A program made the translations under genes and the position numbers. Of a stretch of DNA of 64,000 nt, positions 21,804 through 60,054 are shown one piece after another; the stretch's first letter is position 1; each line of letters begins with the position of its first letter. Source of the DNA: Eukaryota sp. GEM-RC1 (taxonomy: Eukaryota); contig JAUFOQ010000006.1 of the NCBI GenBank assembly GCA_040285855.1, forward strand, positions 930,001-994,000, given 5' to 3'. The notes beneath the pieces are model-generated. The model saw nothing but the letters and a program-made list of their open reading frames with translations. It did no database searches and had not been told where the DNA came from.

Positions 21804-21919
21804 CTGTGAATTTCATTCCAAATGCATAAGGGCATAACCCTTCACATTTTCATGAGATAAACCACAGTTGACAAAGTCCTCATTCGCAAAGTCTTTTAAG
21901 ACGAGCTAACTTCATAGAT
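21804..21919 (-). ncRNA. Candidate Fanzor omegaRNA scaffold (copy 1)
   Basis: 116 nt between the Fanzor stop and the element end, identical in copy 2. It folds into two stem-loops; the terminal one is a 64-nt CTGTG...CACAG hairpin (21804-21867). Confidence 0.75.
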
Positions 21920-24807
21920 TCAAGATTCCTGATCTTTCTGGTTTACGTTTACGTGTGAGTCCTTGGGTACATATTTCTTAGGCTTATTTGGACAAGTTGC
22001 TCTGTTATGCCCAGGTTGAAAACATATACCACACTTGTTAGGACCTCTGACTTTTGTTAGAGGACGCTTTGCCTTACCCTTACCCTTACTCACAGTCTTT
22101 TTCTTAGGAATCTGATCTGTATTCCCGCCATCCACGACAGGTGTTGTTTGAGATTTTGGTCTCTCGAGGATGGCAGGTCTACCTTGACCTTGAATTGTTC
22201 CATTTACAATATTGTAAATATTGATAGCAGAATTGAAATCTCTATTCCAGAGGACATGACATTTAGCACATTCAACTAAGCCCCATGGTGAGACTTTGTT
22301 GTTCTTCAATCTTTCTTTCGAAAATGTCAACTGGTCTGTCCATTCTTCATCAAAGTTACGCTCCACAATATTGTCTAATTGATTGTGTTCAATAATTTCC
22401 TTTTTAATTCTTTCTCTTCCTTCTGTAACTTCTTCTTCCAATTAGGATCAGTGACTTTGATCCTTTCAGGATTGGAACAGATACCTTCGTCATTTCTGGA
22501 AACACATGCAGAGCAACATTTGCTGGTCTTAAATTCATCAACTAGGAACACTTTAAATCCAAATTTTCTCAATAATTTCCGAATTGAAGCACCTTTTACA
22601 GTCGATGCTTTACCTCTTCTTCGACGAAAAGCAGTGTCGTTCCAGTCTCCATACCCAACAACGACTTCATCTGGGTTTCCAAACTGGAGAGTAAATCTGT
22701 GAAGCATGTTTTTCTCACTTCGTTCCTTTCTTGAATACTGTGTTAAGCGTCTACGTCTAAACCACTTTTCTTCGTAAATTCCTTCAGTATTTCTTTGATC
22801 AGTAGTGGGTGATCGTAATAAAGAACAGGTAATTTCTTTACCAAGAACAAAAGCAGAATACTGAGTCAATTCACAAGATTTACTACCTGGCGAGTTAGAG
22901 CCCCATTGATCTAAAATTTGTTGCCCATTTATGTCAATGCGTCTGCCATCTGGAATGTGAATAAATTGGGTAGAGTATTGTTGTAACCGTTCAGATTCAG
23001 ATAAACGGTGGAGATTATATCGTCTTATTTTCTTCTCCAGCTTCCTCTTCTTTCTCTTAGCTCTTTTTCTTTCCTTCCTTGTTTTTTTCTTTTCCATGGA
23101 GACTTGTTCATATCTGCCTTGCGCTCCCCAGCAGTGTATCTGAATACTTTCCAATCATCACGATTTTTCAACTTGACAGTTGATGGTTTGTCAATAGTGG
23201 GTGCGTCTTTCCAATCCTTCAATTGATTTTTTAATTTTTTCAAGCTTCCTTTTTTCTTTGATGATTTTGGAGAAATCTTTCTTCTTCTGAGTTTGGCTGA
23301 TGTATCGAAACCTTCGATTTCCTTTTCCTCCTTAGATTTTAAAGAAGCACAGTACATCAAATCATGCTGATTAGGATCAATAGCAACAATTCTTTTGGAT
23401 TTCAAATTTAAGTTTTGAATTTCTGTGGAACTCAAAGAATCAATGTACCTTTCAGTAGCTGTGTAGTCAACTGCTTTCACCTTCTTATGAGGATTTCCTC
23501 TCGCATCAAGCAGATCTTTCCGCATCATCATTAAATTACAGCTAACTCCATCTGTAGAAATAGAACTGTATTTGAAGTCATGAGACAATGACTTTGGAAG
23601 ACACTTTGGTTTCAAAACTGAGTGCCAAATATCTTTTCGAACGTCATCAAAGCTACCTTTAATTTCTGATGCATAAACTTCTTTAAACCATGTAGTATCC
23701 AATCTGATATGATTAGGAATCAGTGATTTTGTTAGAGGAAAAGGATTATTGGCAGTAACACCAGGACAAGAGTCCTCAACAAGACGTTTCAAATACACTG
23801 CATGACTTAAGAATTTCAAAGGATCTACTTTTTCAGCATAATAGATTGTTTTCTCCATTTTACCTTCAAAAAAAGTAAACAAATAGTTAAAAAATAGTAA
23901 ACTCAGTCTAGAATTGGGATCAGGAAACACTTCAACATCTTGAAAATTAATTTTTGAAATTTCCCCATTAATGATCAACTGTCTGACTTCATTAAGCTTT
24001 GTACACAACTCTTGTCGTAGATTCTTATCAGTAAGCTTGTTAAGTCTATCTTTTTCAGGGTAACCAAATTAAATACTTGAAAAACATATTCATGAAAGTG
24101 ATCACTCATGTTAGTCTTGTAATTCGTTATAATTTCAGTAGCCATGTAATGCAATATACGAGATAAACGATGACTACTGGGAAACACAATCCTATCAAGT
24201 CCAACAGATCGAGCAGCTATTTCTAAACGAGGAATATAATACATCAAGAAGTGTTGAGCAAACTGATTTTGAGTTGAGCCATCATTTGTGTTAGAAATTA
24301 TGTTTTCTAAAGATTCTTGCACAGTCTCAATATGATTCTGATTGTTTACAAGTTTGTTGTCCCTAATCGTCATCATAGACAACACTTGTTCCATTGATTT
24401 CAACGTAAAAAAATTCTTCCAGTCTGGCAATTCAATTTTGGCAGTTTGAATTTTAGTCCAAAGGTCAGGTTCAGGTTTAGGTTCATCACTCGCATCTTCA
24501 ATATTTTCTAATTTAATAGGAGGAGTAGCAGCATGGATAGACTCTGAATGTACATCTGTTTCTTCATCAGTTGACTCATCTGTATCAGAATTCATTTCTT
24601 CCTTAACAGTTACATTTGGAACAGTAGCAGGCAGTAACTTCTGAATGTAACCTATAATACCTGAATGGTGAAAATTATGAACAAAAAATGTTTCAAAAAG
24701 AGAGTACTACGGACTCTTACTTGGTGAGCTCTCTTAACACGAGATTCAATAAATTTAACCTTCGCTTTGGACACAACATTGTCTAGTCGTTTCTTAACCA
24801 CTTTCAT
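21920..24807 (-). CDS. Fanzor1 (TnpB-like RNA-guided RuvC nuclease) with C-terminal CCHC knuckle, frameshifted
   Basis: ISTDGVS; RuvC-I IVAIDPN; VGYGDW; RuvC-II VDEFKTSKCCSAC; ECAKC..WNRDFNSAINI (RuvC-III); GRP; CGICFQPGHNRATC. Spread over several ORFs joined by -1 shifts. Confidence 0.9.
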
Positions 24808-27800
24808 TGGTGACTTTGAACGTAATGTTTGTTTTTTGGGATCCAATAGGTCAGCCAACAAGTACTCAATCAGAGGTAATTGTTGAATTGAGTTCATCAA
24901 CAATAGCGGTCTTGTCGATTCCTTGGCCCAAAGTTCATTTACTTTCTCCAAATTTCTTACAAATTTCTTTTTAATCTTATCGACCTTCACTTTGGGATTG
25001 TCTGGAACTAAAACATTAATACTGTCAATTATGCCATGCAAGTTTTGGACATTATTGACCAATTGAACTTCATCAGGATCAGAGTCATGATTAAGTTCTT
25101 CCAAGCGTTTGACAGTTTCATTTTTAGAAAAATTATTCATTTCAAGAAAAATTTGAACAACATTTTCCAAAAAACGGCCACCAGTAAAGACATAAAAATT
25201 CTTCAGTACAGCATTCAAATCGAGACTAAAAAACGGACCAAAAGTTGTTTCCTTACACCATTTGTTGAACCAAAAGGGAATGTAGGGTTTAAATTCTGGA
25301 AAAGTAAACGTTGTATTGATTTTGAGGACTTGACAACGTGATACAAGAAAGGGAAATGTATCTAAGTGAAAGTCATAACTCACAAACAATCGTGGACAAT
25401 GTTGAGTAATGAAGGAAATGAAGTTTTTAAGCATACTGGATTCACTATCTGAAATATGTAAGGTACACAAATCCAAGTTTGTAGTATCAAAGTTGCCATG
25501 AGAAAATAAATGTTTTTCATTAAACTCATTGTGATCAATGATCTCGATGGAAATTGATACAATAGGATCAACAGAAGAATCACGTTTAACTTCTAATTGA
25601 TCTTCAGCTTCACCTTCAACAGTTTCAATGTCATCATCATCTTCTTGAACAAGTTGAACATTTCTGCCATTAATTCTTTCTTTTTTGGCAAAATCACTTT
25701 GAACATGAATTAAACAAAAGTTGGTAGATTGTTCCAAAGTAGAGGGGATTTAAGAAAGTCTTGAATTTGTATTTCTTCTTCTATAGGCTCAGTGTGTAGA
25801 TTTACTTCCATTTTTGGATTTCTTCTTGAATTGGCGATGGATACGACATAATGGAGGCCTTAATTTTGGGTGGTAGTTCAGATGGTGGTACTTCAGATGA
25901 TTCCAATGTGGACATACGGCGGTGAGTCTTTCGTATTGGAGTGTCACCAGTTGAAACAAGGGAGCTGGTAGTTCTAAATTTATTTCGTTGAATTAAAGGT
26001 GAACCTCGTGGTGATGGAATATCAGAAATTTTGGCCTTTCTTTTTTTAGTGCTTAAACCAGTAGATGCTTTAGTGCTAGCAAGACGCTTACCTGAGATTG
26101 GTGACGCAGAAACACGCGACAACTCAACAGGACTAAAAGTTTCAAAATGTTCCAAAATTTTACTTCGAGACTCGTGAACAGCAATAGTGGTATTACCCAG
26201 CAGTTCTTTAACATCAGTCCACCTTATGACCACAGATTGATCTAAATTCATTAAAAGATCAATGTATTCGAGAACACAAAAACCAGAGTCAGTTAGAGTA
26301 TGTTTGATATTTGATGGAATAAATTCTATATTTCTGGTTTCACACATTGACAACACTGAATAAATTTTTGACACAATTGTAAATAAATTGGAGGAAGATG
26401 GTGCAACTGGCATTTGGTTAGCAGGAAATTCTCTGGCATAATCATCCTCAACGTAGGTCGGATCAATGAATAAAATATGACTTGTAGGAGATGAAATGAT
26501 CAGAATAATTAAACCCCAATGACGACCATCAGCAGTAAGATCACACATTGCACTATTGACAGGAACAAGTAGCATTTGTTGGTTGTTTTGACCACATTGG
26601 AAGAATTTCTGCGTCAAAAAATCTGAAAATGGATATTTATTATAGGGTTGGTCACCATATAATAACGGATATAAATCAGTTGGCCCAATTACATAGTCAT
26701 AAAAGATTAAACCTGTTGATTCCACAAGTATTTTGGAATATTTGATGAACAATTGATCGTCAACATAAGTAAACAATTTTTGAATCTGTTTACGGAGATC
26801 TGCAGCATTAAGTTCAATGTTAACTTGGATTAAAGCACGTTCAATAGAGATCAAAGATAGATTGATGCCATCCCTTGAAATGAGTTCAACAAATTTTTGA
26901 ATATAACCAATAACATAAATACCACAGTCATTAGGAGTCTGTGTCTTGGTGATGTTGACCCTCTGTACGTTCAATGTTACTTTCCTACATAATTCATCTA
27001 CAACAGAACTTAGATAAGAAGAACCAACAATTGGATCCACAAATATCGCGTTGTTTTCCGCACAGTCTATTACCATTAGACCCCAATGAACTCCTCCAGA
27101 TCCACCTGTTGTATTCATAGCATCGTTGAGAGGAACAGCGAAGTATCTGGTGCTTCTCTCCCGGGCGTCATCAATCTTATTTTGGCAGTATCCATCAGTT
27201 AAAAAATCTGACCACATCTCATCTGGAGCAATGAAATAGCATTCCCAATCAAGGTTTGCTTCTTTGAATTGGTGTTTTGAGTATTCAGAAAGGGCGTAAT
27301 CATCTATCCATTGGCCAGGATTCAGATACTCTAGGGAGTCTTTGGACAACGGTCCGGGATTGGATTCCACGTCACCATCCATGGTGAGATCTTCTTTGAA
27401 TGGGGGACGGGAGGAGAAAACTGTACAAGAGAGGTCTAAAACACTTCGCGAGGAAGAACCACACACGGCATAGCTCTTGTTTTTAAGTATGTGTGTGTAG
27501 TTCATTGGAGGGGAATTGACACGGAGGGGAGAAACTGTACCATCAGCGAGAGAAGAACCACACACGGCATAGCTCTTGTTTTTAAGTATGTGTGTGTAGT
27601 TCATTGGAGGGGAATTGACACGGAGGGGAGAAACTGTACCATCAGCGAGAGAAGAACCACACACGGCATAGCTCTTGTTTTTAAGTATGTGTGTGTAGTT
27701 CATTGGAGGGGAATTGACACGGAGGTGAGAAACTGTACCATCAGCGAGAGAAGAACCACACACGGCATAGCTCTTGTTTTTAAGTATGTGTGTGTAGTTC

Positions 27801-28000
27801 ATTGGAGGGGAATTGACACGGAGGGGAGAAACTGTACCATCAGCGAGAGAAGAACCACACACGGCATAGCTCTTGTTTTTAAGTATGTGTGTGTAGTTCA
27901 TTGGAGGGGAATTGACACGGAGGTGAGAAACTGTACCATCAGCGAGAGAAGAACCACACACGGCATAGCTCTTGTTTTTAAGTATGTGTGTGTAGTTCAT
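24808..28000 (-). CDS. Repeat leader + 2A + two Ulp1/C48 (SENP8-like) protease domains, N-terminal to Fanzor
   Basis: WIDD..., VPLND...GGVHWGLMVID, FVDP, QTPNDCGIYV. Second domain VPVN...HWGL...FIDP...DSG. In copy 2 this region is one ORF running into the Fanzor N-terminus. Confidence 0.85.
27350..27391 (-). other. 2A (StopGo) ribosomal skipping motif
   Basis: DLTMDGDVESNPGP matches the D(V/I)ExNPGP consensus. Confidence 0.9.
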
Positions 28001-28026
28001 TGGAGGGGAATTGACACGGAGGGGGA
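27453..28026. repeat. 99-bp tandem repeat (~5.8 units) encoding the 33-aa leader repeat
   Basis: Near-identical units differing at one G/T position. Each encodes MNYTHILKNKSYAVCGSSLADGTVS(H/P)LRVNSPP. Confidence 0.95.
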
Positions 28027-28445
28027 GAGCGAGAGGACCTCATCCCGCTAAACATGTATGCGAGAGAAATGATGAAGAGTATCTGTAAACTGATCTGGAC
28101 TACAGTTGACTTTTTGCGACATCTTCAATTTGACAATACACCTGACATACATTCAATTTATTTTAACGACATGTGATGAACGAATAATTCTAATGACATC
28201 ATGTATACACAAACATAGTACTGTACTGTATGGATTGAAACAAACCAACATTGATGTCAATTTACTAACCTACAGTATGTTAAAAGTTATAAAGACTGCA
28301 TGTAAGATTTATCTAAGTACTGTGAGTAGTGATAACAATAGATGTACATATAAATAAGATCAAGTAAGTCACTGTCTGAGGTGTAGAATTAACCATAAAA
28401 ACTAAGAACGAAAAAATTTATAAAGAACGAAAAAATGAATAAAGA

Positions 28446-31400
28446 CTATTCCCTCATTTTGTATTCCACATCTGTAAGATTTTGCCTCAAAAACGCGTGG
28501 AAAGTATTCCACTTTTTGCTTCGGGGTTGGTCGTTATCCATGATAACAAACAGTGCGTTTTCAGTTCTTTGTTGAATAAAAGGAAATGTTGATGGCGTAT
28601 CTGGAAGATCAATAATAATTGATATCTGACACCTAAATTCGGAAAATTTTTCCAAAATTCCCCAATTAGCAAACAATACCGAGTTTGGTTTCGTGTTGAA
28701 CTGGTTCATTGTGAAATTATAAGCACTTTGAGTGACAGGTTTGGTTTTGCTACTGGCAAATTGGAGGGCATTAATGGTACCGTTCTTGGTTTCTTCACTA
28801 AACAAACTGCGATACGTCAGTACATCTTGTCTAGATTTAAACAATACAGCAATTTTTTCATGGGGTAACTTCCTTGTTTGGAGGATACCATGTAATAACC
28901 TTTTCAAAATTGAACTGATATCCGCAAATTTGCAATGAACAAGGTTGAACTTTTTTCCTTTCAGTCGAATAGGAGGTCCTTCAGCTGGTGATAGTTTGTT
29001 TGGGTGGGATGATTTATCCAAACTTCTACAATATGATTGGAAATCAATTTGTTCCAAAGTTGTATCACCACCTGAACGACACAAAGTCATCACTTCTCCT
29101 GACACATCAACAATTCCAATTGTCATTGAAGTATGAGAAAAAATAGTTGACATGGCTCTTGTATGCCCGTAGATATACAAAATGAGATTTCTTTTTGTTT
29201 TGCACTTATACCTATACACGTTCCATCATTAGTGATACACAAAAATAATTCAAATGCTTCAATGAAAATACAGTCTACCAGACTAATTTTCTCACTTGTA
29301 GGGTAAAAATCATAGACAGATTCAAGACAGTGTATGACATTGCTTTCCCCATCAGTTCTTATGAGATCTACGGATGACTCGCTTAAAACCAAAACAAAAC
29401 CTTCTTTGTAAGCATGAAGTTTGGTGAAGAGCTTTCTTGGTCTATCTTTTGGTTCACGTTGCAAGTCAGCATGAAATTGAATATCTGTCACACTGACGGT
29501 GTAATCAGTAATGTAAATGAAACTGTCACATAAGGTTACAATATCCTTTAATCCTGTTGTTTGACTAGTTAAAGTCCGCCTGACTCCAGACATTTCAAGT
29601 TCGTATATAAACTTTTCCGTCATTACCAAGCATCCCCTAAAATAGTGACCAGGCAAAAATATTGCAACAATTCTTTCATCAAGTTGGTGTTGCGTATATT
29701 TTCCATTTTCGGTACCATTTTCTACGCTGTCTTCATAAGATGACTCATTGTATAAAGGTAGATTAAGGAGTTTAATCATTGACTCTTTAACATAAATAAC
29801 AAATAATCCATCAGACGAAACGTCAAATGGACTATCACTATTGATTTTGTCCAAAATTGAACTGGATTTGTGATCTGTAAGATCAAGAATCATAAGATAG
29901 TATGAGCCATTGAGAAGACAACGAGCAACAATTTGAGTTGTCGCCGGTATAATTACACACTGTTGAACGACAAGTTGTACAAAGGTAAATTTACCAGCTA
30001 TGTTAGGTACAGGTCTTTGAAAACAAATTTTTTGAGCCTTCCATGACGCAATAGGTTCTGTACTATACAAAGCAGTAGAAGAAGTAGTAAAAGCAGTAGT
30101 AGAAGTAGTAGTAGGAGCAAGAGTAGTAGAAGCAGTAGGAGCAAGAGTAGTAGAAGCAGTAGAAATAGTAGAAGCAGTAGAAATAGTAGGAGGAACTGTA
30201 TCTTGCCAATACAATGTAATAATAGATCCTTTTCCAGTAACAAAATAAATTTCTGGCTTTTTGAGAGAAGGAAAAATTTTGATAATACCTGCATCCCAGT
30301 TTCGTTTAAAACGATCATTAAAAAAGACAGGAGCGGCTCGATTATCAGTATTAAAGAAACCAATACGATTCTTTCTAGTCACAAAAATGATGACTTTGGG
30401 ATGACCATATATTCCACATGCATCAACAATACAATCATATGGCTTAGGTCCTTCCAACCACCCCTGTGGTCTTAACAGAAAATCTACTTTGATTTGAGAT
30501 TTTGAAACCGTCACAATATGTAACGAAGTCTTTGCAACCACGAGTCGTGAATGAATATCATTTGGAATTACACCAAATTTGAATCCACCCGTAGCATAAC
30601 TGTGCATTTCAGCATCTGAGAAGCTGACGGCATCTTTATTTGCCCAGAAAACCGAACTACTTGTTAATAACAAATGTGTATCAAAGGAATCTTCCAGTTT
30701 TACAAATGTGGAATCAAGGGCTACTTCGTTTCTTGGAAGTAAGGTAAACGCATCGTTACCAGTCCTATCGGGAAGTTGTACAGATTTCAAATAACCACCA
30801 ATGGTACCGACAAACAAACGGTCATTATCTGTACTTACTAAAGATGTTGACTTGATTTGATTTTTAAATTCACGGTACATTTGATTCTTATACGAAGCAT
30901 TATGTGCTTGCATGTATGTGATCATAACTTGATCAGCGGTGGGTGTGAATACATAAAAAAAAGTAGGCCTGGGTTGGTGAACTGCTAGTGACAGTAAATC
31001 ATACTTTGGCAAATGTAAACGATTTTGTAAAGTATCCTCTCCCACTGTCCAAAGAACTAAATCATTTCCAGTTGTCAATAATATAATGAAACTACCAGTT
31101 TCAGTTATTACGGCATTTTTAATGTCAGATGTAGATGACCAAGTGGTTTTGGATTTGACAGATGTCGCAAGTTGAGCGAGAATGTCAATTGTCTTTGTCT
31201 TTACAGGTTGACGTTCTGAAGAAGGAGGGTGAGAATGAGCTGAAACACTGACTTGATGCCCTAATAAAAGTTCATCTTCTTTTGAAATTGTTTCTAAATC
31301 AGATTCTTCCATATACTCCTCTACATCACTGGTTCCAAATGTTTCAGACTCCGAGTCCGATACAATTTTTTGTTTTTCAACATTACTATACAGTCTTTTC

Positions 31401-34400
31401 CAGTTGAATCAAACCTTGCTTCATACTTACGAATTGCTTCCTCAATATCAAAATTTCCGCAAACGTTACACGGCCCAGTGCATAATTTAGTTTTAACGGT
31501 TTCATCTAACCGAAATGGTACACTACCAGCAGCATCATAGTCGGATGCGTCCACATCAATAATTGTTCCAGTAGGTTTCATGGGGGACGATTTAATGGCC
31601 TGAATCTGATAGAACAAACGAGTAGGATCCATTTGTAATCTTTCACACAAATAAACACCTAATCTACATCGATTCAGGCAACCAATCATTGATACTAAAG
31701 GTTTCAGAACAGAATCATCGTATTCATAGCATATTTCCGAATTATGCGCAATATCAAATGATACCATTTGTGTGGTAATACATCCGTAGCTGAACACACG
31801 AACATACATCAATTGTAAAAATAAGTTGGACAAAGTACGTTCAAAATAACAGCACAAAGTTGGAAGTGCCTGTTGCGGAGTCACATATACACCTGACCAT
31901 TGATCACATTTATCGACAGGTAATCGAGTGAAAAGAGAGTTGTAGAATTTGAGATCAATACGACCACTATGACCGTTCAGAGTACTGTACTTAATAGGAC
32001 TTTGATAGTAGTAATTTGAGGCTCTTAAACGCACATTAACGGAGAATGTTTTTTCTTTACATAGTAGACCAAAATTTAACAAATCTGCAACATTTACACC
32101 GGCACTGTTACTGGAGTACCATTGATTAGTTTTGAAGAATACTGAGGGATAGGGGTGTATATTCAATTTGGGGAAAAACGGATGGGGTAATTTAGATGAT
32201 GAAGAATTTTCAATCATTTTGGCCAAAATAAGTGAAATAACTCTGTTATTTTTACAATTACTCGCTGTAAGTTCGATTTCCTTGTCGGATTCAACAGAAA
32301 GTTCTAATTTAACAGCATTTGTGTCCCGCTGTCGCTGTTTTGAAGACTCCAATAAACTATTCAATTTTGTTATCTTTGCGTTTAATTCATCAACAGAAAC
32401 ACTTTCAAATAACGTCTTTTCAAATGGTTCAACAGGCAGCTGAGTTGAAGATCCTTGTAATGCCATGTCTTGTTGCATACTTCGAAACATTATTGAATTT
32501 TTCGGGTAAGACGACGCAAACAACAAAGTCAATTGTGAAAAATCGAAATTAGATGGAACAAGTGTTTGATAAAAAGATTGATCCTTAAAATCACTCCATT
32601 CTTTTGATTTAGATCCTGTTTCCTCTCTTTTTCATGTTTATGTCCTGTATGGGCCATTTTGTACCCTTGTAATAAAGATTGGACCTGTTTGGCTTTAGCT
32701 TCTAACGAATCAAAGGTTTTGGACAATCGATTCAATTTGGATTGGAAGGTTTCACCCATACTTGATACACTACGCTTAATAACACTCAATTTGGACAGCA
32801 ATCTATCGCACCAAAACTTCAACTTCCTAAGGTCAAAATATTGTAAAATCTTCCAATTGATTGTACCGGATAACAAGGCACATAAAAATTTGAACATCAT
32901 ATTCAGGTCTGAAAATCCGTGATCCGTTCCATCATCATACAAATTTAGAAAATTTCCTAGTTTTTCAACTTGGTTGATGTATTCTGTGTTGAACTTGAAG
33001 TTAAACAAATTGAAATTGAATGAACATAAAAGAATTAATCCGGCAACAACTTGATCTTGAACAAAACAATTGAATACAAAATGAAAATGTTCATGAGAAT
33101 CAGCAAGAAGTGATCCCAAAAGTCCCATAGACGTCAGTTTGTCATTGATAAAACGACTCTCAAGGATATTATTCAGGTAGAGGGAGTAAACTGTTTCGTT
33201 TACTGAAAAATCAGAAACGATAGTAGGCATGGCATTCAGAAAATCATTTGGATGAGATGAAATTTGTTTAACTTTCAAAATACAATCTTCCAATGGTGAA
33301 TCTAGAATTTGTGGATCTTTTGTCGGAGACCTTGAGTACTGACCAATAAAATTAAAGTCAAATAATCTAATACAGATCCCAGGTCTTGTCCGTCCGACTC
33401 TTCCAGCACGTTGAGTAGCAGAGCATTGTGAAATGTTTGCCATAACCAATTCTTTTCTGAAATTTGGAACTCTTTCTAACCCAGTATCCAAAACAATTAC
33501 TGCCGAGTCGATCGTGATTGATGACTCTGCGATGTTAGTTGCAGCAACAATCTTGAATTCATTGTTTTTACACTTGCTTGCTGCCTTGAGTTGATCCTCT
33601 CTGCTGATCTCAGAATACAAAGGATAACAACAGTTCATAGGCAAATCATTATTGTGATAACATGCTTTAACCAGACTTTCTACTTCAAAAGAACCAGGTA
33701 AAAAAACAATTAATGTTATACCTGGAACATCTGACTGTCTTGTATGAAGTTTTGTTAGTACAAAGTATTTGACAACAATTTTGTAAATAACAATTATCAA
33801 TTGCAGGAGTGCGTCTGAGTTAATAATCGACGGGTGAAGTCTCTGATCTACTTTAGATTCAAAGTGTTTTTTATAATTTACCACTTCTGCACGAAAATCA
33901 TGTTGATGATCACAGACAGCTTCTCGAAATCGAGGGGGAAATCCTTCAGTAAGTTTTGAATACCAGTCATTAGTTTCGAAATTCTTAAAGTCGAAAACGT
34001 TCAGGACTCTTGAGAATTGACCAGTGTCAAACATAAGGTTTTGTTGTTCTTTAAGTAAATCAGTCTCTGTCCATTGATTATCAGGGAGCAAAGTGTTTAA
34101 AAACTGGGTTAAGTTCAGCAGTTGTTGATCCAATAGTTGCGGATGACAAACCACGTATAATGCCCGAGTTTTTTAAATTAATTTTCATTACTGTGAGTAA
34201 CAGATCGACATCTATAGTTCTGTCATGAACTTCATCCACAATGACGACTTTGTAAGTAGAAACAAATGAATGCTGATTCATCAACAACATGAGAGTTAAA
34301 CCAGTTGTTTGATAATGAACCAAAGTATTGTCTGAAAAATTGTATACCCCACCACCACAGTGATATCCAGCAATGGGGTAATCGTAAATAAATTTACTAC

Positions 34401-36542
34401 CCAGTCGAGGTCTAGTTAAGGAGTTAAGAAATTCAGACAAAAGATTGCCGAAGGTACCGTTGGTTGGGAAACAATGACTTTGCTAAAAAAAGTAAGCGCA
34501 AAAATAACAGGTGACAGTGTAGATTTTCCTGATCCAGTTGAACCAGTGATCATATAGGGTAAATCATAACTCCGATCAGAATTACAATAACACTTGATTA
34601 AATGCTTTAATAGTTCAGTAAAACTATTCTTTCCAGTAGAAGTCGAGACAAAGGACAATTTATGATCTCGTTGAGCATGAAATAGAACATTCATCAAACT
34701 AGACAATGCGAAATGGTCTACATTGTGTCTACTAGCATATTGTTTCCAGTGAGTGATGATAATTGGAGTAATTTGAGTAATAAGGTCGCATTTTAAATCC
34801 ATCAGCTCAGTCATAAGATCATCGAAATTAGTATCATGACGGTTTACCTCAATTGGTTCAATAGCATCAACAGCATTAACATCAAGGAGAATTTCGGTAA
34901 GATCTTCGGGTGTTTCTTCAACATCTTGTAATAAATCAATAACTTTGGCTTTCTCTGTCTTATATTTCAAAGCATCTTTAATTGCTTGTTCAACAACTTC
35001 TTCATGTGTTGTTCCATTGAATATATAGCTAATGAAAACAAATGGGAAGTTCATTAGATTTACAAAGGGTTCAAAACAATTTTCAAATTCTGAAGTGGAA
35101 ATAATGTAACTTTGATAACCTAGCATAAATACCAACAAATAAATTGAAGAAATTTGTTGATTTCGGTAATTCTCTTGATCAGTTTCATTTGAAAATAAAT
35201 ATGTCTTGGCAAAGACATAAAAGCGATAGAGTGATCGAAAAATCCAGGTATCTTGTAACTTTGCATCAACATTGAGTAATCGGGAAGCATAGTTTTCAAT
35301 TCTTACAGACATATCAATAGATGTATTATTAAAATCCTGTACTTGTTCATATTCATCAGCTTCGTCAGTTGTTTGTTCTGAAAGAACAGCTTGGCCATCG
35401 GCAGCTTCAGCATATTCTACAATTTCATTGAGTAGTTTTTCCAAGTAATTTTTGTTAAAATGTTTTGGTGGGGTCAGATCTCGCAGCCAAGTTTTTACTT
35501 CTCTTGCTGAATCAACTGTGAATGGGGAAAGAGAATCTGGCGTTGGAAAGGTATCTTTAAAAAATTTAGATCTTTGCAAATACTGATGACACAGTGTTAG
35601 TGCTATCGTCAACATTGTTGTTAACGAAAGACAACAGGCAGGATTTACAACGCGAATGAATTTCGAGAAATCAAGAGTATGAGCGGTTAAACAGCATTGG
35701 ACGGGCCTGGTCGAATCATGCTGTTGTGGAAGTATACCAGGCTGTCGGGGGAGCATACATTGATTACAAATGGCGTAACTTGAACATTGTTTATCAATTG
35801 TCAAACGTTTTTGTGCAGAAAATTGTAGAAGTTGTTGCGATGGTAAAACTTTCAGGGACGGCAAGTCAATGGAGGTGAAAACTTCATTATGATATTCTAG
35901 AAACTCAACAAAAACATGATCGACTTCTGGGGCAATCAGAGATTCAAAGAAGGATGTAATGTAATCATAAATATTTTTAACAGAAAGTCTTTTCATTGGT
36001 AGATCAAAATGAGCAAGAGCATTGTCTAGTTGAGACTTACATTCAGTAAAAGAAATGGGATCACGATCAGTCATTGCTTCTGGAACAGACTGTGAAGCAT
36101 TCAGGTGATAGTGTTCCAAGCAAGTACATATACGATGTCCTGTAATGTTCTTCACAGGATGGATTACAGACTCATGTGAAATAAATGCACAGCCTGAGTG
36201 AGCGGAGGGTGGAAATGGACCGGGATTTGACTCTACATCACCGTCCATTGTGAGATTTCTTAACCAACTATGGGATGGAGAGGCATTAGATTCAGTAACA
36301 CGTACAAAACAACAATAGTTCAAGGCATGACTCTTCTTTACGAGCATGTTATCCCTATATGTTGTATTGGGGGAAGGGGGCGTAGAAAGAGAGGACTTCG
36401 CTTCAACAACGGGAGGAGAACAACAACAACAATAGTTCAAGGCATGACTCTTCTTTACGAGCATGTTATCCCTATATGTTGTATTGGGGGAAGAGAATGG
36501 CATTTTGAAACGATGGGGAAGATATATCCGGAGCAATTTCAT
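28446..36542 (-). CDS. Repeat leader + 2A + DEAH/RHA-family helicase polyprotein (six ORFs joined by frameshifts)
   Basis: GSTGSGKST, SQPT, IVDEVHDR, SAT, VFLPG, ATNIAESSITI, DTG and QRAGRVGR motifs. Downstream ORFs overlap in shifted frames and include a beta-rich (propeller-like) region and a degenerate helicase-C-like domain. Confidence 0.8.
36216..36266 (-). other. 2A (StopGo) ribosomal skipping motif
   Basis: WLRNLTMDGDVESNPGP. Confidence 0.9.
36309..36493. repeat. Two ~68-bp direct repeats, 117 bp apart, in the helicase leader
   Basis: PNTTYRDNMLVKKSHALNYCC is encoded twice. Confidence 0.9.
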
Positions 36543-37229
36543 TTGATGTTGATCTTGATGCTTCTGACTTCACTTCACCACCTTGGATTTTACATCACCT
36601 TAAAAACACTTCTTTAACACGTTATCCCCATGGATGTTTACGTCTGTCTAACGTAATTCATGCTTACTTGGAGTTCATCATGTGTTGTTCTGGATGAGAT
36701 CCATGACTTTTTTTTGAGTTTCCACCTTCATTTACTGTACTCTTGGTCAAAATCGAATCGTATTTGCGGTTTTTAATGATGAGATATTTATGTAATGTTG
36801 GCTTCACAATAAAATATGAAATAGATAGTTACAGTTGAAAACATCCTATACATTTATAAAAATAGAATATAATTCACCATATGGCTTATGAGTCGTTATG
36901 ATGCCGTTGCCGTGACGGATATGCACCTAAACCCACCACGATCTGATGATGTTGTAGTAGATCAAATGCGCAAATCAACTTTCTCCAATTACACACGAAT
37001 CCAGGAATTTCAACAGGTTGTCAACAACCACCAGACATCTCTTCTCACTTTTTTTCACTATATGGTCAAAAAATCTTTATTGTATATGATGGTTTCTTTC
37101 ATGTACATAATGAAGGGAAGATATATCTAAAGTTCAAAAGGATTCTTCGTAAAATTGGATTTTTGACAAGAGACTTAAGAGGAGGGAGTGGAGTCGAAGT
37201 AATCTCAGTTGTTCCAGTTGATTCTGATT

Positions 37230-37799
37230 CTAAGTCATTGCTTGAGTTACTTGATTCTTCTTTTCATTCAATAAGTTTTCTTCTCTAACTGCCTTTGGAG
37301 ATTTAGACTTTTTCATCTTAGAAAGTCTTGCAGAACATGAAACTTTTTGATGTTGTTCATGTTCTGCAAGATCAGACAAGTCTATTGCTGAGTCACTTTG
37401 ATCTTGAATCAAAATATTATATAAATTTTGAGAGGACAAGGAAGTAGTGGTACCATTCTTTTCTTCAAGAATATGAGTTTCTTTGTTAATAAAGAATTCA
37501 ATGTTTTCCTTAAGATTATCACCAACAACATTTTTAAACCATGTTGTATTGTTGGTGGACACTGCGATATGAGAAGTACTATCAGCAGCTCGGGTGATTA
37601 AGATATAATCTCCATTAATTCCGAGATTGCAAGGTGAAGTTGAAGGAGTTGATTTTGTCTCAGTAAAAGAAAAGACATTGTATACATCTTGGTGTTTAGA
37701 TGCATACTTCCTCTGATAAGCAGAAAGACGACGTTTCCGAGACAGAACGTTTGTTGATGAGTTCATGCAAATTTTGCCGGGAAACAAATTCTCCTTCAT
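37230..37799 (-). CDS. Hypothetical element protein
   Basis: 189-aa ORF with an NLS-like RKRR. It probably continues through a -1 shift. No family recognised. Confidence 0.4.
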   Translation of the reverse strand: MKENLFPGKICMNSSTNVLSRKRRLSAYQRKYASKHQDVYNVFSFTETKSTPSTSPCNLGINGDYILITRAADSTSHIAVSTNNTTWFKNVVGDNLKENIEFFINKETHILEEKNGTTTSLSSQNLYNILIQDQSDSAIDLSDLAEHEQHQKVSCSARLSKMKKSKSPKAVREENLLNEKKNQVTQAMT

Positions 37800-38590
37800 C
37801 GGAATCTCAATGTCTTTGAACGAATCTTCTCTTGAAGTGATGTCAAGTCTGTTAGTACAATATCACGAACACTGCAACAGAAGTTTGATAACCTTATGCA
37901 ATTGTTGTCATTGTACTTCGTTAGGAGATGATTCTGTGACCACATCTATATCAACTTCCTTAAAAGATCTTGTGTCAACTCTGTTCTACCCTTCATCAGA
38001 AACTTCTAATGTTGAGGAAGTCTTAATCAGAGTATCTCATCTTTGGCAGTTCACGCCTCTACTCAACAGTTTTCTCAACTGGACAGGTTTAATTGATATT
38101 CTTCTTCATTGTTGTCTCAATGATGATACTTGTTTATTTTTGAAACATTTACATTTGCTGATCAATAGTTTTGCTTGTTTAGTTGGTATATTATTTTGTC
38201 ACAGTTCTCGATCTTCTACAACTTTATTAATTCCTGTACTCCTCCAAAGTTCACTTCATGATGATGGTCATTTAAGATTTGATTATTTTAAAAAGATTGA
38301 GGATAAATTGTTGCTATTACTTGAGGACAATGATTATTATCTATCTGTTTCAAAGTTTGTTTTGATTTTTGTTAACATTGTTTTAGCAAAAGGTAATTGT
38401 AATGATTATACTGAAGTTGTCAATTTGTTTAGTTTTATTTTTAGAACGAAGTGATTTTGTTGACTTGAAACATGTTTTGACTTGGAAAATGTCAGGAAAT
38501 GATGAGATTGATGTGGAGAATTTATGTGATGAGTTGTTGCAGTTTAATGATAGTGTAGTGAAGTATGTTTGTAAGTATTTGTGTAAGTAG
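37765..38590 (+). CDS. Hypothetical element protein (frameshift at ~38440 in copy 1 only)
   Basis: ORFs 37765-38454 and 38402-38590. The 3' part is continuous in copy 2 (59321-59797). Confidence 0.45.
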
Positions 38591-38596
38591 ATACAT

Positions 38597-38846
38597 ATTG
38601 TTACACATCTTGTATTACACATCTTGTATTACACATCTTGTATTACACATCTTGTATTACACATCTTGTATTACACATCTTGTAAAACACATCTTGTAAA
38701 ACACATCTTGTGTTACAAATGTTGTATTACAGATCTTGTGAAACACATCTTGTAAAACACATCTTGTAAAACACATCTTGTGTTACAAATGTTGTATTAC
38801 AGATCTTGTGAAACACATCTTGTATTACAGATCTTGTGAAACACAT
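38597..38846. repeat. 14-bp minisatellite (TTACACATCTTGTA and variants)
   Basis: Tandem 14-mers starting just after the stop codon at 38590. Confidence 0.95.
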
Positions 38847-39647
38847 CCAGTCTTGTATCTACATCCACATTTTCTTCATCCAAACTCATATCCACAACGA
38901 AGCCACACTCTGTTACTTCTCGTTCTTTAAGAGTTATGTGACTCCCCAAACTGAAGGCTAGTGACATTTGCTGAAGACATACACCCGATACACATGTTAA
39001 ATGCCATATTGTTACCCCTTGGTCTTTGATTCTCCTTCTTGTATAATAAACAGCTAGTGTCTCGTTTGCGTATCGTCGTTGCATATCTTTTATATGACAA
39101 CATCAAGACATGACAATTCTAATCCCAGTCAAACAGACTTACGCGTACTCTTTATTGTTTGGTCAATCCACTGCTTTACACTTCTCGCCAAACTTATCGG
39201 AAACACATTCACTCTTTTCCTCTTTTAACATTTTGTGTTGATTCTATTGGAAGACGGTGCTAGATGTATTAGTTAGTCGCTGAGTAATGTCGCTGAGTAA
39301 TATCATAATAGTTGGAAAGTAAGATTTGATCTATAAACAAGAAGACATAGATGTTAAAACGAAGTTTACTATTACAAAAAGAAGTCAGAGATGATACATA
39401 TAAACATACAAACACACATCCTCCATCACTACTACTGGTGTGATATAGAAAATTCTTGCATATGAATCGTATGGAAGGACAAATGTTCACAGAATCAATA
39501 TAAAAGGACTTGAAGTCGTGAACTGCGGAAATGTGAGATTGTAATACCCCGACTGAAATACAGTCCCTGGATAAAGTCATAGTTTGAAGTGAAAGAGAAA
39601 TTTGATGAAGACCAAGTTTCCCTGCGCTCAAACAATCCATCAACTCA

Positions 39648-42144
39648 ATGGCACCAACCTCTTTACACAACATCAATCTCACAGATGACCAACGTGAGAT
39701 CTTTAACGCAATCACTACCAGCAGACACAACTTCTTTGTCACTGGTGGTGCAGGATCAGGAAAATCTTATCTTTTACATGCTCTCAAATACTGGTGGAAT
39801 AACGCAGGATCTCGTCTCATGCGTGCTAATGGTGAAATCTTCTTCACTGCAACAACTGGGGTTGCCTCAACTGTTTTTGGTGGACAGACCATACACTCAC
39901 TGTTTGGTTATAAGTTTATGAAAGAAGAAGAATCCATACATGATGTTATCAAATGTATGCCATCAAATGTCAAAATTTTGTTAAAAAATATTACTCCAAA
40001 AAATACAATGTTAATCATTGATGAAATTTCAATGTTATCCTCCAATTTGTTTCAACGGGCGAGTGACATTTTGGGCGAACTTATGCACACGCAAAAATGT
40101 CACTCTCCGAAGAAACCATTTGGAGGAATTCAGATAATTTGTTTTGGGGACTTTCTTCAATTAGCCCCTGTTGTGAAAAGTCTTGATGGAAAAGGAAATC
40201 GAAAAGTGGTAATTTCTGATTTCGCTTTTTCATCAAGAGCTTGGAACAATTTAAATTTTAAATATTGTGAACTGGCTGGAAGTATTCGTCAGCAATCAGA
40301 CTCAAAATTTTTTAATTTTCTAAATCAATTGAGATTGGGTCTGTTAGATAATTTTATGAAATCAATTCTGCGTACTCATTTCGAAACAGCAGAATCTGTT
40401 GAAAACCCAACAATTTTATACGGAAAGAATACTGATGTTGCTAGAGAAAATTTTAAACAATTCAAACTTCTGGCCAAAATTCAGATTCAATTGAATTTGT
40501 AGCTGTTGACAAATTCAATGAATCTGAATTAAAATCTCAAATCAGAAAAAGAAGTTCTAGATTTCCAGTCAATGAATCTAATTTGGAAAAATATTATGAC
40601 ATTGAAACTTCTGTGCTGACAAGTCGCTTGGATGACTTTGCTGAAAAAAAACTAGAATGCGTTGTGGGTGGACAAGTGATGTACACTCAAAATAAGCCTG
40701 AACTTGGACTAGTTAATGGTTCAAAAGGAGTTATTGTTAATTTTTCAGATTCATATATTGATGTTCGGTTCAACGCTGAAGCAGAACCGAAAAGAATCAG
40801 TCAGTCAAGGTTTGCTATCGAACACTTGAACGAAATCGGAAGACCTGTTCAAGTGGCGAAAAGAATTCAGTTTCCGCTAAGACCTTGCTGGGCGATAACA
40901 GTGCATCGATCCCAAGGTTTAACAATTGACGGGATTGAAGTTGCTATCCAGTTTTGGGAATATGCCCAACTTTATGTGACCTTAAGTAGGGTTAGGTCTT
41001 GGAGGAGTTTAAAGATTTTAAGTATTGGAAGAAGTTATCCGGTACCAAATTTGGAATTGTACCAATGGTATTATTCAACTTTTCATCCTGTTAAACCATC
41101 CACTATTGATTTGTATGTTTTGGGAAATCAACATTGTCTTCAACGAGATTTCAATCATTTTAATTCATTGTTTGCAAACTTTTGTGCAGAATCGAGTGAA
41201 CCAATTATGGATGATGTTGTTGTTCCTGAAATTGTTCATGGTGTTGATGAAATTGTTGATGAAGTTGTTGTTGATAATGTTGATGAACAAATTATTGAAA
41301 ATAATGATAATCAAATTATTGACTTTGAAAAAATCGTTTAAATCATTTAGACAAATCAAATTTATTTGAAACAGAAGCTGTACTATCAGGATCCGATTCT
41401 GGTGATGAATCTGATAGTGATACAATTTCAACAAGTTTAGATGATTTTGTTGTAAATGATGAACTTGAAGAAGATGAAACTAATATTCCTCCCAAATTTA
41501 TTAATTGTGACTCAATTTTTAACAAAAATTCCCCAGAGATTGGTGTCAATAAGTCTAAACTTCCTCAGTTACCACGAGGCAACATTACTCTACCATCGCT
41601 TCCCCGTTTGAAGAAAACCCCTTTACCAACGAAGAATTTATTATTAAAAAAGAATGTCAGTGCTGGTATAGAAAGAAAAAGTTCCCAAGTATTTCCTCTT
41701 ATTGATGATGAAAAGCGATTTTGTCTCAAGGAAGTTCAAACTGAAAGCTTTGAAAATGAAAAATGTGATTCCATATGTGAATATCAACAAACTGACAATA
41801 TGACTTATGAAACAATATCATTGTCTCCTATTTTGGAGTATAATCGTGTTGCTACTTCAAAACAATTGAGAGTGGACTTAACTATTGGAATTCAGTCAAT
41901 TGTCGATAATGTACTAGATTGTATTGGATCTGAATATGCATCAAGTATGGAAGTGAAAACAATAAGAAACTGTTACATTACCGATGTGATTAATAGGGAT
42001 AATGTTGATGAACGTTATTGTAGTGATGTGCTTGTGGAATTGTTTCATGTTTTGAAAGAGTATTTGAAAAATGATGAAAAGACTGGTATGTGTGTTTTAT
42101 TTGAATTATATTTAATTTTGAAAAAGATTGGAAAATATAGGTAA
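39648..42144 (+). CDS. PIF1-family (SF1B) DNA helicase with acidic C-terminal extension, two -1 frameshifts
   Basis: TGGAGSGKS, TATTGVAS, GQTIHS, IIDEISM, PFGGIQIICFGDFLQLAPV, RQ, LVNGSKG, RIQFPLRPCWAITVHRSQGLT and QLYVTLSRV motifs. Confidence 0.92.
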
Positions 42145-42160
42145 TTTTGATAGTTTCATT

Positions 42161-42520
42161 TTGTGTTACACATCTTGTAAAACACATCTTGTAAAACACA
42201 TCTTGTATTACAAATCTTGTATTACACATCTTGTGTTACACATCTTGTAAAACACATCTTGTATTACAAATCTTGTATTACAGATCTTGTGTTACACATC
42301 TTGTAAAACACATCTTGTATTACACATCTTGTGTTACAGATCTTGTGTTACAAATGTTGTATTACAGATCTTGTGTTACAGATCTTGTGTTACAAATGTT
42401 GTATTACAGATCTTGTGTTACACATCTTGTGTTACACATCTTGTAAAACACATCTTGTGTTACAGATCTTGTGTTTCAAATGTTGTATTACAGATCTTGT
42501 AAAACACATTTTGTGTTACA
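42161..42520. repeat. 14-bp minisatellite, same family
   Basis: Tandem TTACACATCTTGTA / TTACAGATCTTGTG / TTACAAATGTTGTA after the PIF1 stop. A related array lies at 42709-42798. Confidence 0.95.
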
Positions 42521-43262
42521 GAAAGCACTTGTAGTTTTGTAAATTCTAATATAAAATAGTCAACAATTCAAAAGATCGAAGGTGTTCTTTTCAGTCAACT
42601 CTAGACATTAATAGTGAATATCTTTCTTGGCTGGGTTAACACATTGATTAGTGAAGACAGATAAGAGTCATGTCTAGGTCAACAATTCATTACACATACG
42701 ACACTTTCATTACAAATGTTGTAGTTACAAATGTTGTATCACCAAATGTTGTAGTTACAAATGTTGTATCACCAAATGTTGTATCACCAAATGTTGTACA
42801 TGTAGTTATAACTTGGTGTCTTTGTGTCTTCTGATGAATGAAGCTTCATGGACTTGATGTCGTTGACCTTAGTCTCATTCCAGATAGCATCTGATAGAAT
42901 TGAAAAATGCAGTCAAAAATGACTGAAGACACAGCAGTGTATTACACGATCAGAGTTGTAGCAAACCTTAGTGTTTTCCTTTGGAGGATAAGATGTCAAT
43001 GTGATGTACGTGTAGTAGGATGGTTGTACAACGTTGAGTTTATTCATGACATGGTTGAACACGGTTCACAAGTCTAAGAACGAACACCTGCAAACACGTC
43101 TCTATCTTGAAAGAAGCTCAACACTGGATATCAAACGATGTATGGAATCCATCAAAGAAGGTATAAGTGAATCAGTTTGGGGATATGTGGTTATGGGGTG
43201 AAGAGTTTTTGGGGTAAAATGATTTTGGGGAGTATGCACCCCAAATGAATTCAACACTAGTA

Positions 43263-53951: not shown

Positions 53952-54067
53952 CTGTGAATTTCATTCCAAATGCATAAGGGCATAACCCTTCACATTTTCA
54001 TGAGATAAACCACAGTTGACAAAGTCCTCATTCGCAAAGTCTTTTAAGACGAGCTAACTTCATAGAT
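53952..54067 (-). ncRNA. Candidate Fanzor omegaRNA scaffold (copy 2)
   Basis: Identical to 21804-21919. Terminal hairpin at 53952-54015. Confidence 0.75.
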
Positions 54068-56950: not shown

Positions 56951-59311
56951 TGGTGACTTTGAACGTAATGTTTGTTTTTTGGGATCCAATAGGTCAGCCA
57001 ACAAGTACTCAATCAGAGGTAATTGTTGAATTGAGTTCATCAACAATAGCGGTCTTGTCGATTCCTTGGCCCAAAGTTCATTTACTTTCTCCAAATTTCT
57101 TACAAATTTCTTTTTAATCTTATCGACCTTCACTTTGGGATTGTCTGGAACTAAAACATTAATACTGTCAATTATGCCATGCAAGTTTTGGACATTATTG
57201 ATCAATTGAACTTCATCAGGATCAGAGTCATGATTAAGTTCTTCCAAGCGTTTGACAGTTTCATTTTTAGAAAAATTATTCATTTCAAGAAAAATTTGAA
57301 CAACATTTTCCAAAAAACGGCCACCAGTAAAGACATAAAAATTCTTCAGTACAGCATTCAAATCGAGACTAAAAAACGGACCAAAAGTTGTTTCCTTACA
57401 CCATTTGTTGAACCAAAAGGGAATATAGGGTTTAAATTCTGGAAAAGTAAACGTTGTATTGATTTTGAGGACTTGACAACGTGATACAAGAAAGGGAAAT
57501 GTATCTAAGTGAAAGTCATAACTCACAAACAATCGTGGACAATGTTGAGTAATGAAGGAGATGAAGTTTTTAAGCATACTGGATTCACTATCTGAAATAT
57601 GTAAAGTACACAAATCCAAATTTGTAGTCTCAAAATTGCCATAAGAAAATAAGTGTTTTTCATTAAACTCATTGTGATCAATGATCTGGATGGAAATTGA
57701 TACAATCGGATCAACAGAAGAATCACGTTTAACTTCTAATTGATCTTCAGCTTCACCTTCAACAGTTTCAATGTCATCATCATCTTGAACAAGTTGAACA
57801 TTATTGCCATTAATTCTTTCTTTTTTGGCAAAATCACTTTGAACATGAATTAAACAAAAAGTTGGCAGATTGTTCCAAAGTAAAGGGGAATTAAGAAAGA
57901 CTTGAACTTGTATTTCTTGTTCGATAGGCTCAGTATGTAGATTTACTTCCATTTTATGGATTTCTTCTTGAATTGGCGATGGATACGACATAATGGAGGC
58001 CTGTGATTTTGGTGGTAGTTCAGATGGTGGTACTTCAGATGATTCCAATGTGGACATACGGCGGTGAGTCTTTCGTATTGGAGTGTCACCAGTTGAAACA
58101 AGGGAGCTGGTAGTTCTAAATTTATTTCGTTGAATTAAAGGTGATCCTCGTGGTGATGGAATATCAGAAATTTTGGCCTTTCTTTTTTTAGTGCTTAAAC
58201 CAGTAGATGCTTTAGTGCTAGCAAGACGCTTACCTGAGATTGGTGACGCAGAAACACGCGACAACTCAACAGGACTAAAAGTTTCAAAATGTTCCAAAAT
58301 TTTACTTCGAGACTCGTGAACAGCAATAGTGGTATTACCCAGCAGTTCTTTAACATCAGTCCACCTTATGACCACAGATTGATCTAAATTCATTAAAAGA
58401 TCAATGTATTCGAGAACACAAAAACCAGAGTCAGTTAGAGTATGTTTGATATTTGATGGAATAAATTCTATATTTCTGGTTTCACACATTGACAACACTG
58501 AATAAATTTTTGACACAATTGTAAATAAATTGGAGGAAGATGGTGCAACTGGCATTTGGTTAGCAGGAAATTCTCTGGCATAATCATCCTCAACGTAGGT
58601 CGGATCAATGAATAAAATATGACTTGTAGGAGATGAAATGATCAGAATAATTAAACCCCAATGACGACCATCAGCAGTAAGATCACACATTGCACTATTG
58701 ACAGGAACAAGTAGCATTTGTTGGTTGTTATGACCACATTGGAAGAATTTCTGCGTCAAAAAATCTGAAAATGGATATTTATTATAGGGTTGGTCACCAT
58801 ATAATAACGGATATAAATCAGTTGGCCCAATTACATAGTCATAAAAGATTAAACCTGTTGATTCCACAAGTATTTTGGAATATTTGATGAACAATTGATC
58901 GTCAACATAAGTAAACAATTTTTGAATCTGTTTACGGAGATCTGCAGCATTAAGTTCAATGTTAACTTGGATTAAAGCACGTTCAATAGAGATCAAAGAT
59001 AGATTGATGCCATCCCTTGAAATGAGTTCAACAAATTTTTGAATATAACCAATAACATAAATACCACAGTCATTAGGAGTCTGTGTCTTGGTGATGTTGA
59101 CCCTCTGTACGTTCAATGTCACTTTCCTACATAATTCATCTACAACAGAACTTAGATAAGAAGAACCAACAATTGGATCCACAAATATCGCGTTGTTTTC
59201 CGCACAGTCTATTACCATTAGACCCCAATGAACTCCTCCAGATCCACCTGTTGTATTCATAGCATCGTTGAGAGGAACAGCGAAGTATCTGGTGCTTCTC
59301 TCCCGGGCGTC
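56951..59311 (-). CDS. Ulp1/C48 protease region, 5'-truncated, in frame with the Fanzor N-terminus
   Basis: The 821-aa ORF 56795-59260 contains HWGL/DCG motifs and ends in MKVVKKRL...STLFLKHF. Confidence 0.85.
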
Positions 59312-60040: not shown

Positions 60041-60054
60041 CAGTCTTGTATCTA

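Follow-up and report, generated by a model that had tools for sequence, protein, structure and literature searches.

What keeps and moves a large eukaryotic element that carries an RNA-guided nuclease of the Fanzor1 type and no recognizable transposase? The question arises from a 64,000-nt stretch of a contig of Eukaryota sp. GEM-RC1 (the window), which holds two copies of such an element. The initial annotation had proposed an undescribed RNA-guided family, defined by the combination of Fanzor1 with Ulp1 proteases and DEAH and PIF1 helicases. A multicopy Fanzor1 element with unusual cargo is upheld by our analysis. Sequence comparisons support a different hallmark for it: a fusion of an exonuclease domain with Fanzor1, and not the PIF1, DEAH and Ulp1 set.

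Two copies with one exact end

Self-BLAST of the window aligns positions 21804-27169 (copy 1) with 53952-59311 (copy 2) at 98.5% identity. Further stretches of copy 1 (38113-40028 and 38862-41652) are repeated in copy 2 at 99-99.5% identity, up to the end of the window, where copy 2 (53952..64000, minus strand, delimited by self-BLAST and boundary alignment) runs off. The copies start on the same base (21804/53952), 116 nt beyond the Fanzor stop codon, and their flanks are unrelated, as the annotation had described. The terminal letters are CACAG, and the first flanking base differs between the copies, being T or C. The repeated Fanzor1-bearing DNA element is real.

Both copies contain Fanzor and PIF1 in one order and orientation. 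They do not share the same cargo, as had been claimed: copy 2 lacks 27170-38112 through an internal deletion that removes the whole DEAH open reading frame (ORF) and both 2A leaders, and that hides the joint between the Fanzor and PIF1 modules in this copy. The deletion joint contains a 9-nt templated insertion duplicating nearby sequence, and copy 2 also has a tandem duplication of 1167 bp. Substitutions between the copies are patchy, with 0 of 1291, 66 of 2796 and 3 of 1269 sites changed in different segments.

The 3' terminal region (21804..21919, minus strand) comprises the element end and a predicted scaffold for the Fanzor omega-RNA, based on the exact boundary and a predicted stem. This stem lies in the final 66 nt and closes on the terminal base (z-scores of -2.0 and -2.4; 5 of 200 shuffles as good); the prediction rests on two identical copies, for which covariation is not informative. 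The predicted stem would fit the accessible text of PMC10711439, according to which Fanzor1 RNAs have a double-stranded stem at their terminus. Flanking sequence beyond 21804 would serve as the guide. A hemerythrin gene with two domains (20702-21685, minus strand; PF01814, E 1e-31) adjoins this end of copy 1, which lies about 120 bp upstream of the likely start of the gene, so that the predicted guide would be drawn from that upstream region.

The exonuclease–Fanzor1 fusion

Three long genes can be followed across frame breaks: ORF A (minus strand, about 2,700 aa), ORF B (minus strand, about 2,030 aa) and PIF1 (plus strand, about 830 aa). ORF B begins with a leader (27350..28024, minus strand) of 5.8 in-frame 99-bp repeats, followed by the 2A motif DVESNPGP at 27373. 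The leader is followed by two Ulp1/C48-like protease units with a Ser/Lys-rich linker (25805..27350, minus strand; PF02902, E 6.7e-6, and motifs). These units form an internal repeat (E 2e-6), the first with H-D-C motifs and the second with Ser in place of Cys.

Directly upstream of Fanzor lies a PolB-type 3'-5' exonuclease domain (24810..25749, minus strand), assigned by alignment to natural fusions and by matches within 24655-25749 to PF03104 (Pfam, E 1.2e-7) and phrog_262 (PHROGs, E 1.2e-5). The annotation, which reported no polymerase, had overlooked this domain; profile searches of the element's ORF pieces found no polymerase catalytic domain beside it. In the alignment to natural fusions, the window's subfamily lacks all three exonuclease catalytic motifs, and the exonuclease of the window copies looks dead.

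Fanzor1 forms the C-terminal part of ORF B, in pieces (21920..24810, minus strand; assigned by motifs and the homologues P0044, P0068 and P0001). TDG is found at 23555, the RuvC-I motif IDPN at 23381, the RuvC-II Glu near 22535 and NRD at 22246, together with DEFKTSKCCSAC, CAKC, a zinc finger and a C-terminal CCHC knuckle. All sequence motifs that mark Fanzor1 in the accessible text of PMC10711439 and PMC3627910 are present, namely TDG in the WED domain, DP(G/N) in RuvC-I (here DPN), the Glu at the alternative position, the C4 zinc finger and RD. The Fanzor catalytic motifs read as intact. ORF B would be translated as a leader ending in 2A, followed by a Ulp1-Ulp1-exonuclease-Fanzor polypeptide. 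Every motif that the annotation had named (Fanzor1, two DVESNPGP 2A, two Ulp1-like, DEAH and PIF1) was found in the element.

Ten of the 13 frame joints in copy 1 involve a single -1 shift, a kind of break that host genes in the window show too. Copy 2 reads through three joints, with Ulp1 leading into the exonuclease in one frame, and database proteins read across breaks within Fanzor (P0044), from exonuclease to Fanzor (P0068 and P0001), from DEAH into the next piece (P0075) and within PIF1 (P0008). Because host genes break alike and other copies and proteins read through, most breaks are most simply read as single bases missing from the assembly, and programmed frameshifting is not favoured. 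The PIF1 joint could be a real break or a programmed frameshift: of 14 related models, 6 are interrupted at one and the same site, and all 14 are incomplete.

A search for longer proteins with the Fanzor C-terminus gave four matches. The best, P0001 (1473 aa, labelled Eukaryota sp. TZLM3-RCL, four cluster members), holds a 2A-like motif, PF03104 and Fanzor in one chain, and its best match among solved structures is SpuFz1 (E 6.8e-7). P0005 (1479 aa) is a natural fusion of the same layout. P0001, P0005 and P0007 keep D-x-E, N-x3-F-D and Y-x3-D, which we take to be the three exonuclease motifs. Motifs II and III are gone from a second natural fusion, P0068 (subfamily C; 1182 aa; labelled Eukaryota sp. 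GEM-RC1), and 6 of the 13 subfamily C models begin at the same exonuclease N-terminus. All listed matches in an Atlas search with the P0068 N-terminus were PolB exonuclease clusters at 0.82-0.83, which is a lead only. Neither of the intact fusions P0001 and P0068 contains Ulp1.

The Fanzor parts of the fusion subfamilies are 28-45% identical to one another. They form one branch (Shimodaira–Hasegawa-like approximate likelihood ratio test, SH-aLRT, 100) in a quick, midpoint-rooted tree of 32 rows with long branches flagged, which excludes partial rows as well as 13 of the 31 viral rows. On these comparisons, natural exonuclease–Fanzor1 fusions are intact database proteins in two deeply diverged subfamilies, and the fusion appears to be 2A-led both in the window and in the TZLM3-RCL-labelled proteins.

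The exonuclease profile matched none of 78 ORFs from 80 viral Fanzor loci, a set in which most ORFs measure 605-705 aa and at least one (L053) is a mis-picked MutS. A viral scan with the exonuclease–Fanzor alignment gave no match, while viral scans with Fanzor and with PIF1 returned distant relatives only. When 83 loci from the viral and metagenome scans were searched with pieces of the element, only the Fanzor and PIF1 pieces matched. We found no account of an exonuclease–Fanzor1 fusion in the literature, where supplementary tables, Repbase and subscription papers may hold such loci; the word exonuclease does not occur in the main texts of PMC10530073, PMC10711439 and PMC10691335. Literature searches likewise returned nothing that joins Fanzor, PIF1 helicase and transposon, and none of the listed papers on Skoliomonas, Barthelona or metamonads mentions Fanzor.

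Proposed guided retention and the extent of the unit

Our preferred reading, held at somewhat less than an even chance, is a Fanzor1 element in which a flank-guided nuclease cuts empty sites, repair copies the element back, and new insertions are made by an end-specific enzyme. The omega-RNA would comprise the last ~120 nt together with the adjoining flank. In the role of a homing nuclease directed by this RNA, Fanzor would cleave alleles that lack the element; these would regain it through synthesis-dependent repair, perhaps with the aid of the PIF1 that the element encodes. An active exonuclease would trim DNA ends or guide RNA, and a degenerate one, as in the window, would only bind or scaffold. 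An end-specific enzyme is needed to account for exact ends at unrelated sites; new insertions would likely be its work, and it would act in trans or be unrecognized within the element. Such a mechanism would follow that of TnpB, for which retention has been shown in bacteria (accessible text of PMC10055086), and the retention role proposed for Fanzor (accessible text of PMC10530073). The templated deletion joint and the patchy divergence of copy 2 fit repair copying and recombination but are not proof of them.

How much of the surrounding sequence belongs to the unit depends first on PIF1. This gene encodes a stand-alone helicase of cellular/viral type (39648..42144, plus strand, two breaks; PF05970, E 5.6e-33) without an N-terminal Rep. 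It is 59% identical to P0008, which begins at the helicase, as do the window ORF and 5 of 5 aligned homologues. The P0008 cluster is a second stand-alone PIF1 subfamily of 19 models in the same labelled proteome. A metagenome scan with PIF1 found three distant loci only, and the sole one with ORFs read (L001) looks bacterial. A tandem-repeat scan located a 14-bp array of the TTACACATCTTGTA type after a plus-strand stop (38601..38847, plus strand), and a second 14-bp array (42157-42520) with a related 15-bp array (42710-42798); the latter pair (42157..42798, plus strand) is the last sequence clearly tied to the element. The arrays are all on one strand, each main array directly 3' of a plus-strand stop codon, and may act as terminator, binding sites or origin.

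ORF A (28449..36569, minus strand, five breaks; PF00271, E 2.6e-8; DEAH structures, E to 3e-18) starts with a 117-bp repeat leader, a 2A motif at 36239 and an orphan region. There follow a DEAH/RHA helicase (~34540-33000) with all main motifs, a 436-aa region without family, a 761-aa beta-rich region and a C-terminal piece without family. Outside the helicase, searches of Pfam, PHROGs and NCBIfam, phmmer and structure searches found no family and no solved relative. For the orphan region, phmmer against 1.84 billion representatives returned only P0026, a fragment of the same family; a repeat protein matching at E 1e-7 was treated as spurious. An Atlas search with 31324-32631 gave nothing at 0.9 or above, and a helicase C-terminal fold for 28449-29225, an impression from motifs, found no support. 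The 2A regions of the ORF A and ORF B leaders are homologous, which links the two genes. Of the three members of the DEAH cluster, two are window pieces; the only other locus, P0075, lies 39 gene numbers from the nearest PIF1-A model. ORF A would be variable cargo. In 36570..38590, a codon-usage scan marks coding stretches at 36873-37285 (plus), 37233-37862 (minus) and 37720-38587 (plus), without family matches in Pfam, PHROGs or NCBIfam.

Clustering of gene models at 90% identity gave 26, 14 and 13 models for Fanzor subfamilies A, B and C, and 14 and 19 for PIF1 subfamilies A and B. The listed Fanzor-A models (15 of 26) are spread over 7 contigs, and the 14 PIF1-A models over 8. The extra PIF1 subfamily and the two further Fanzor subfamilies point to several related element families. 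Linkage was assessed from the gene numbers of 26 named PIF1 and 45 named Fanzor models. The test is weak because the lists lack ten named Fanzor-A and four PIF1-B models and because gene models in repeats are fragmentary. It gives no support for a fixed PIF1–Fanzor unit, though both window copies carry both genes.

Several observations weigh against the preferred reading. PIF1 lies within 12, 20, 30 and 40 genes of Fanzor in 3, 4, 8 and 9 of 26 cases, where 2.0, 3.2, 4.8 and 6.2 are expected by chance (p 0.32, 0.40, 0.10 and 0.15), and of the 11 named PIF1 models of the window's subfamily, only 1 has a listed Fanzor within 30 genes. All 14 PIF1-A models fall short of full length. The RNA-fold z-scores of the terminal stem are modest, the exonuclease is degenerate both in the window's subfamily and in P0068, and a mobilizer was found neither in cis nor in trans.

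Since Fanzor and PIF1 are not linked above chance and DEAH occurs at one other locus, the 21-kb unit may be composite. A smaller 2A-(Ulp1)-exonuclease-Fanzor1 element would then adjoin or be nested with an independent PIF1 repeat and one-off DEAH cargo, the whole having been copied once nearby. We consider this possible, although less probable than guided retention. The 14-bp arrays that flank the PIF1 part, the lack of Ulp1 in the intact fusions and the deletion in copy 2, which conceals the module joint, all agree with it. The shared order and orientation of Fanzor and PIF1 in the window copies speaks for a single unit, as do the homologous 2A leaders, PIF1/Fanzor pairs separated by only 2, 9 and 11 gene numbers, and a Fanzor-C model that has a 2A-leader fragment 17 genes away; the gene lists on which the linkage rests are incomplete and fragmented.

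The far end lies somewhere from the stretch 42799..43262 to ~44700, a region with no terminal inverted repeat (TIR) or target-site duplication (TSD) above chance. The annotation had placed it at 43260, which our searches do not sustain. The best 14-nt inverted match in 42520-44800 ends at 43257, with 0.89 such matches expected by chance, and longer comparisons give no support. The best TSD candidate measures 6 nt in a 2.3-kb search space, where none stands out, and no long inverted repeat was found between the element ends. Beside the proposed end, 43263-43899 is a separate non-coding element of ~640 bp. Its 24-bp TIRs (CACTGG...CCAGTG) are perfect, TA flanks it on either side, and it has subterminal repeats of 17 bp, resembling a miniature inverted-repeat transposable element. 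The ~21-kb family of the annotation is borne out in its two copies and its multicopy Fanzor and PIF1; its fixed extent, with PIF1 and DEAH as fixed parts, and its far end are unproven.

Mobilizer and known element classes

Pfam searches of 30 long and 51 short ORF pieces found no DDE, HUH, tyrosine or serine recombinase, reverse transcriptase, polymerase core or capsid, and the long unassigned pieces gave no match to these enzyme families in PHROGs and NCBIfam. The absence of a recognizable transposase, as first annotated, holds across the 81 pieces. Single-sequence AlphaFold models of two unassigned regions have predicted local distance difference test values of 36 and 33, too low for fold comparison, and a diverged transposase may be hidden in the element.

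Profiles alone gave no hidden Markov model (HMM) match to a Crypton/Starship or IS607 recombinase in the element's ORF pieces, none of which matched a reverse transcriptase (non-long-terminal-repeat or Terminon) either. The pPolB catalytic domain, integrase, capsid (searched by HMM only) and long TIRs of Polintons and Polinton-like elements were not detected. TIRs or a fixed-length TSD of a DDE transposon were not found above chance in 42520-44800, the far end of copy 2 being outside the window. Rfam returned two weak matches far below threshold and no ribozyme match.

Another reading is a new class of giant eukaryotic mobile DNA without any transposase, in which the 2A-released fusion would cut target DNA under RNA guidance, its exonuclease part would prepare the ends by trimming, and the element's PIF1 would drive long-tract copying, up to 21 kb, into the broken new site. 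All recognizable enzymes suit such break-and-copy chemistry and no integrase was found; the fusion is kept across subfamilies that form one branch, and copy 2 has a templated deletion joint. We nevertheless regard it as improbable: the guide matches only the element's own flank, which leaves exact ends at unrelated sites unexplained, the window's subfamily has a degenerate exonuclease, PIF1 and Fanzor are not linked above chance, and no precedent was found.

Rather less likely still is an HUH element, Helitron2-like or of another kind, that has lost its Rep, is served by one in trans or encodes one too diverged to recognize among the unassigned ORFs. Fanzor1 is carried by non-autonomous Helitron2 elements with over-represented 3' ends (accessible text of PMC3627910), Helitron-like elements can hold Peptidase_C48 (accessible text of PMC11417382), and the window element has a predicted subterminal hairpin and HUH-like tripeptides such as FFHVH at 37100. 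Such tripeptides are common in non-coding frames too, and Pfam found no Rep in the 81 ORF pieces. Neither the window's PIF1 nor any of the 5 aligned homologues has a Rep in front, and P0008 scores 143 bits to cellular Pif1 against 82 to Helraiser (7LCC), a comparison of scores without a tree. Helitron ends (CTRR with A|T insertion, or short TIRs with T|T; accessible text of PMC11417382) differ from the known end, CACAG then T or C. The Helitron2 comparison suggested by the annotation fails on Rep, helicase type and end.

A local segmental duplication or misassembly without a mobile unit is very unlikely, and already largely refuted for the Fanzor end: the copies lie 32 kb apart and are near-identical in parts, frame errors are many, host genes included, and the 1167-bp tandem duplication is possibly an assembly error, but the boundary falls exactly where the Fanzor RNA scaffold should end, the central part of the copies differs at 2.4% of sites, PIF1-A occurs on 8 contigs, and the 26 Fanzor-A models are near-identical, those listed lying on at least 7 contigs.

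Elsewhere in the window, a frameshifted ORF (~52900-53692, plus strand) ends 260 bp before copy 2 and contains a Cys/His knuckle followed by D...K..RY...PFG; we take it to resemble the C-terminal restriction-like endonuclease of a non-LTR retrotransposon, and it has no Pfam or NCBIfam match. Host paralogues include two SWEET-type transporter genes (46823-47675 and 50129-50982; PF03083 match on the first), a C-terminal gene fragment shared by 11138-11330 and 52362-52554, and 511-1088 and 3468-4021, which we take to be BTB-like repeat genes from their pattern.

Among known systems, the Fanzor1-bearing elements (unclassified MCi-2/MCi-5 and ascovirus SFav-1; accessible text of PMC3627910 and PMC10711439) share with the window element the Fanzor1 motifs at the 3' end, a conserved 3' region and, often, the lack of an own transposase. 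In contrast, Fanzor here is the C-terminus of a predicted 2A-led polyprotein with exonuclease and Ulp1, whereas the viral relatives are mostly stand-alone Fanzor ORFs without an exonuclease match. Helitron2/HLE2 elements with Fanzor (CRe-1,2,3) are alike in Fanzor1, a nearby PIF1-family helicase, clan-type protease cargo, a subterminal hairpin and 3' ends that outnumber full copies; they differ in Rep, in a Helitron-type helicase and in the CTRR end or T|T insertion, none of which was seen here. The TnpB systems of IS200/IS605 and IS607 share an RNA-guided nuclease, a right-end RNA that runs into the flank, which here is only predicted, and the working model of retention through empty-site cutting. 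Unlike them, the window element has no Y1 or serine TnpA, is about ten times larger and has predicted eukaryotic 2A recoding. Polintons, Tlr1 and transpovirons resemble it in their size of 15-25 kb, PolB-related domain, SF1 helicase and cysteine protease; the polymerase catalytic domain, integrase, capsid, packaging ATPase and long TIRs were not detected here. Terminons, giant Penelope-like elements, are likewise giant and of protist/animal type, with many accessory ORFs including 3' exonucleases (accessible text of PMC6431247), whereas the window element has no reverse transcriptase, no Rfam ribozyme match and genes on both strands.

The predicted 2A recoding sits in an element without a reverse transcriptase, while the accessible part of a recent 2A survey concerns RNA viruses and retroelements (10.64898/2026.09.24.754024). 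Fanzor1 is here joined to a putative end-processing domain, which bears on what Fanzor does in eukaryotic transposons. The fusion persists across deeply diverged subfamilies in active-looking (P0001) and degenerate (P0068 and the window) versions, a natural pair that allows a test of whether end trimming steers Fanzor breaks to copying. It is a candidate natural nuclease–exonuclease editor. If the element moves with no transposase even in trans, it would represent a new mode of mobility.

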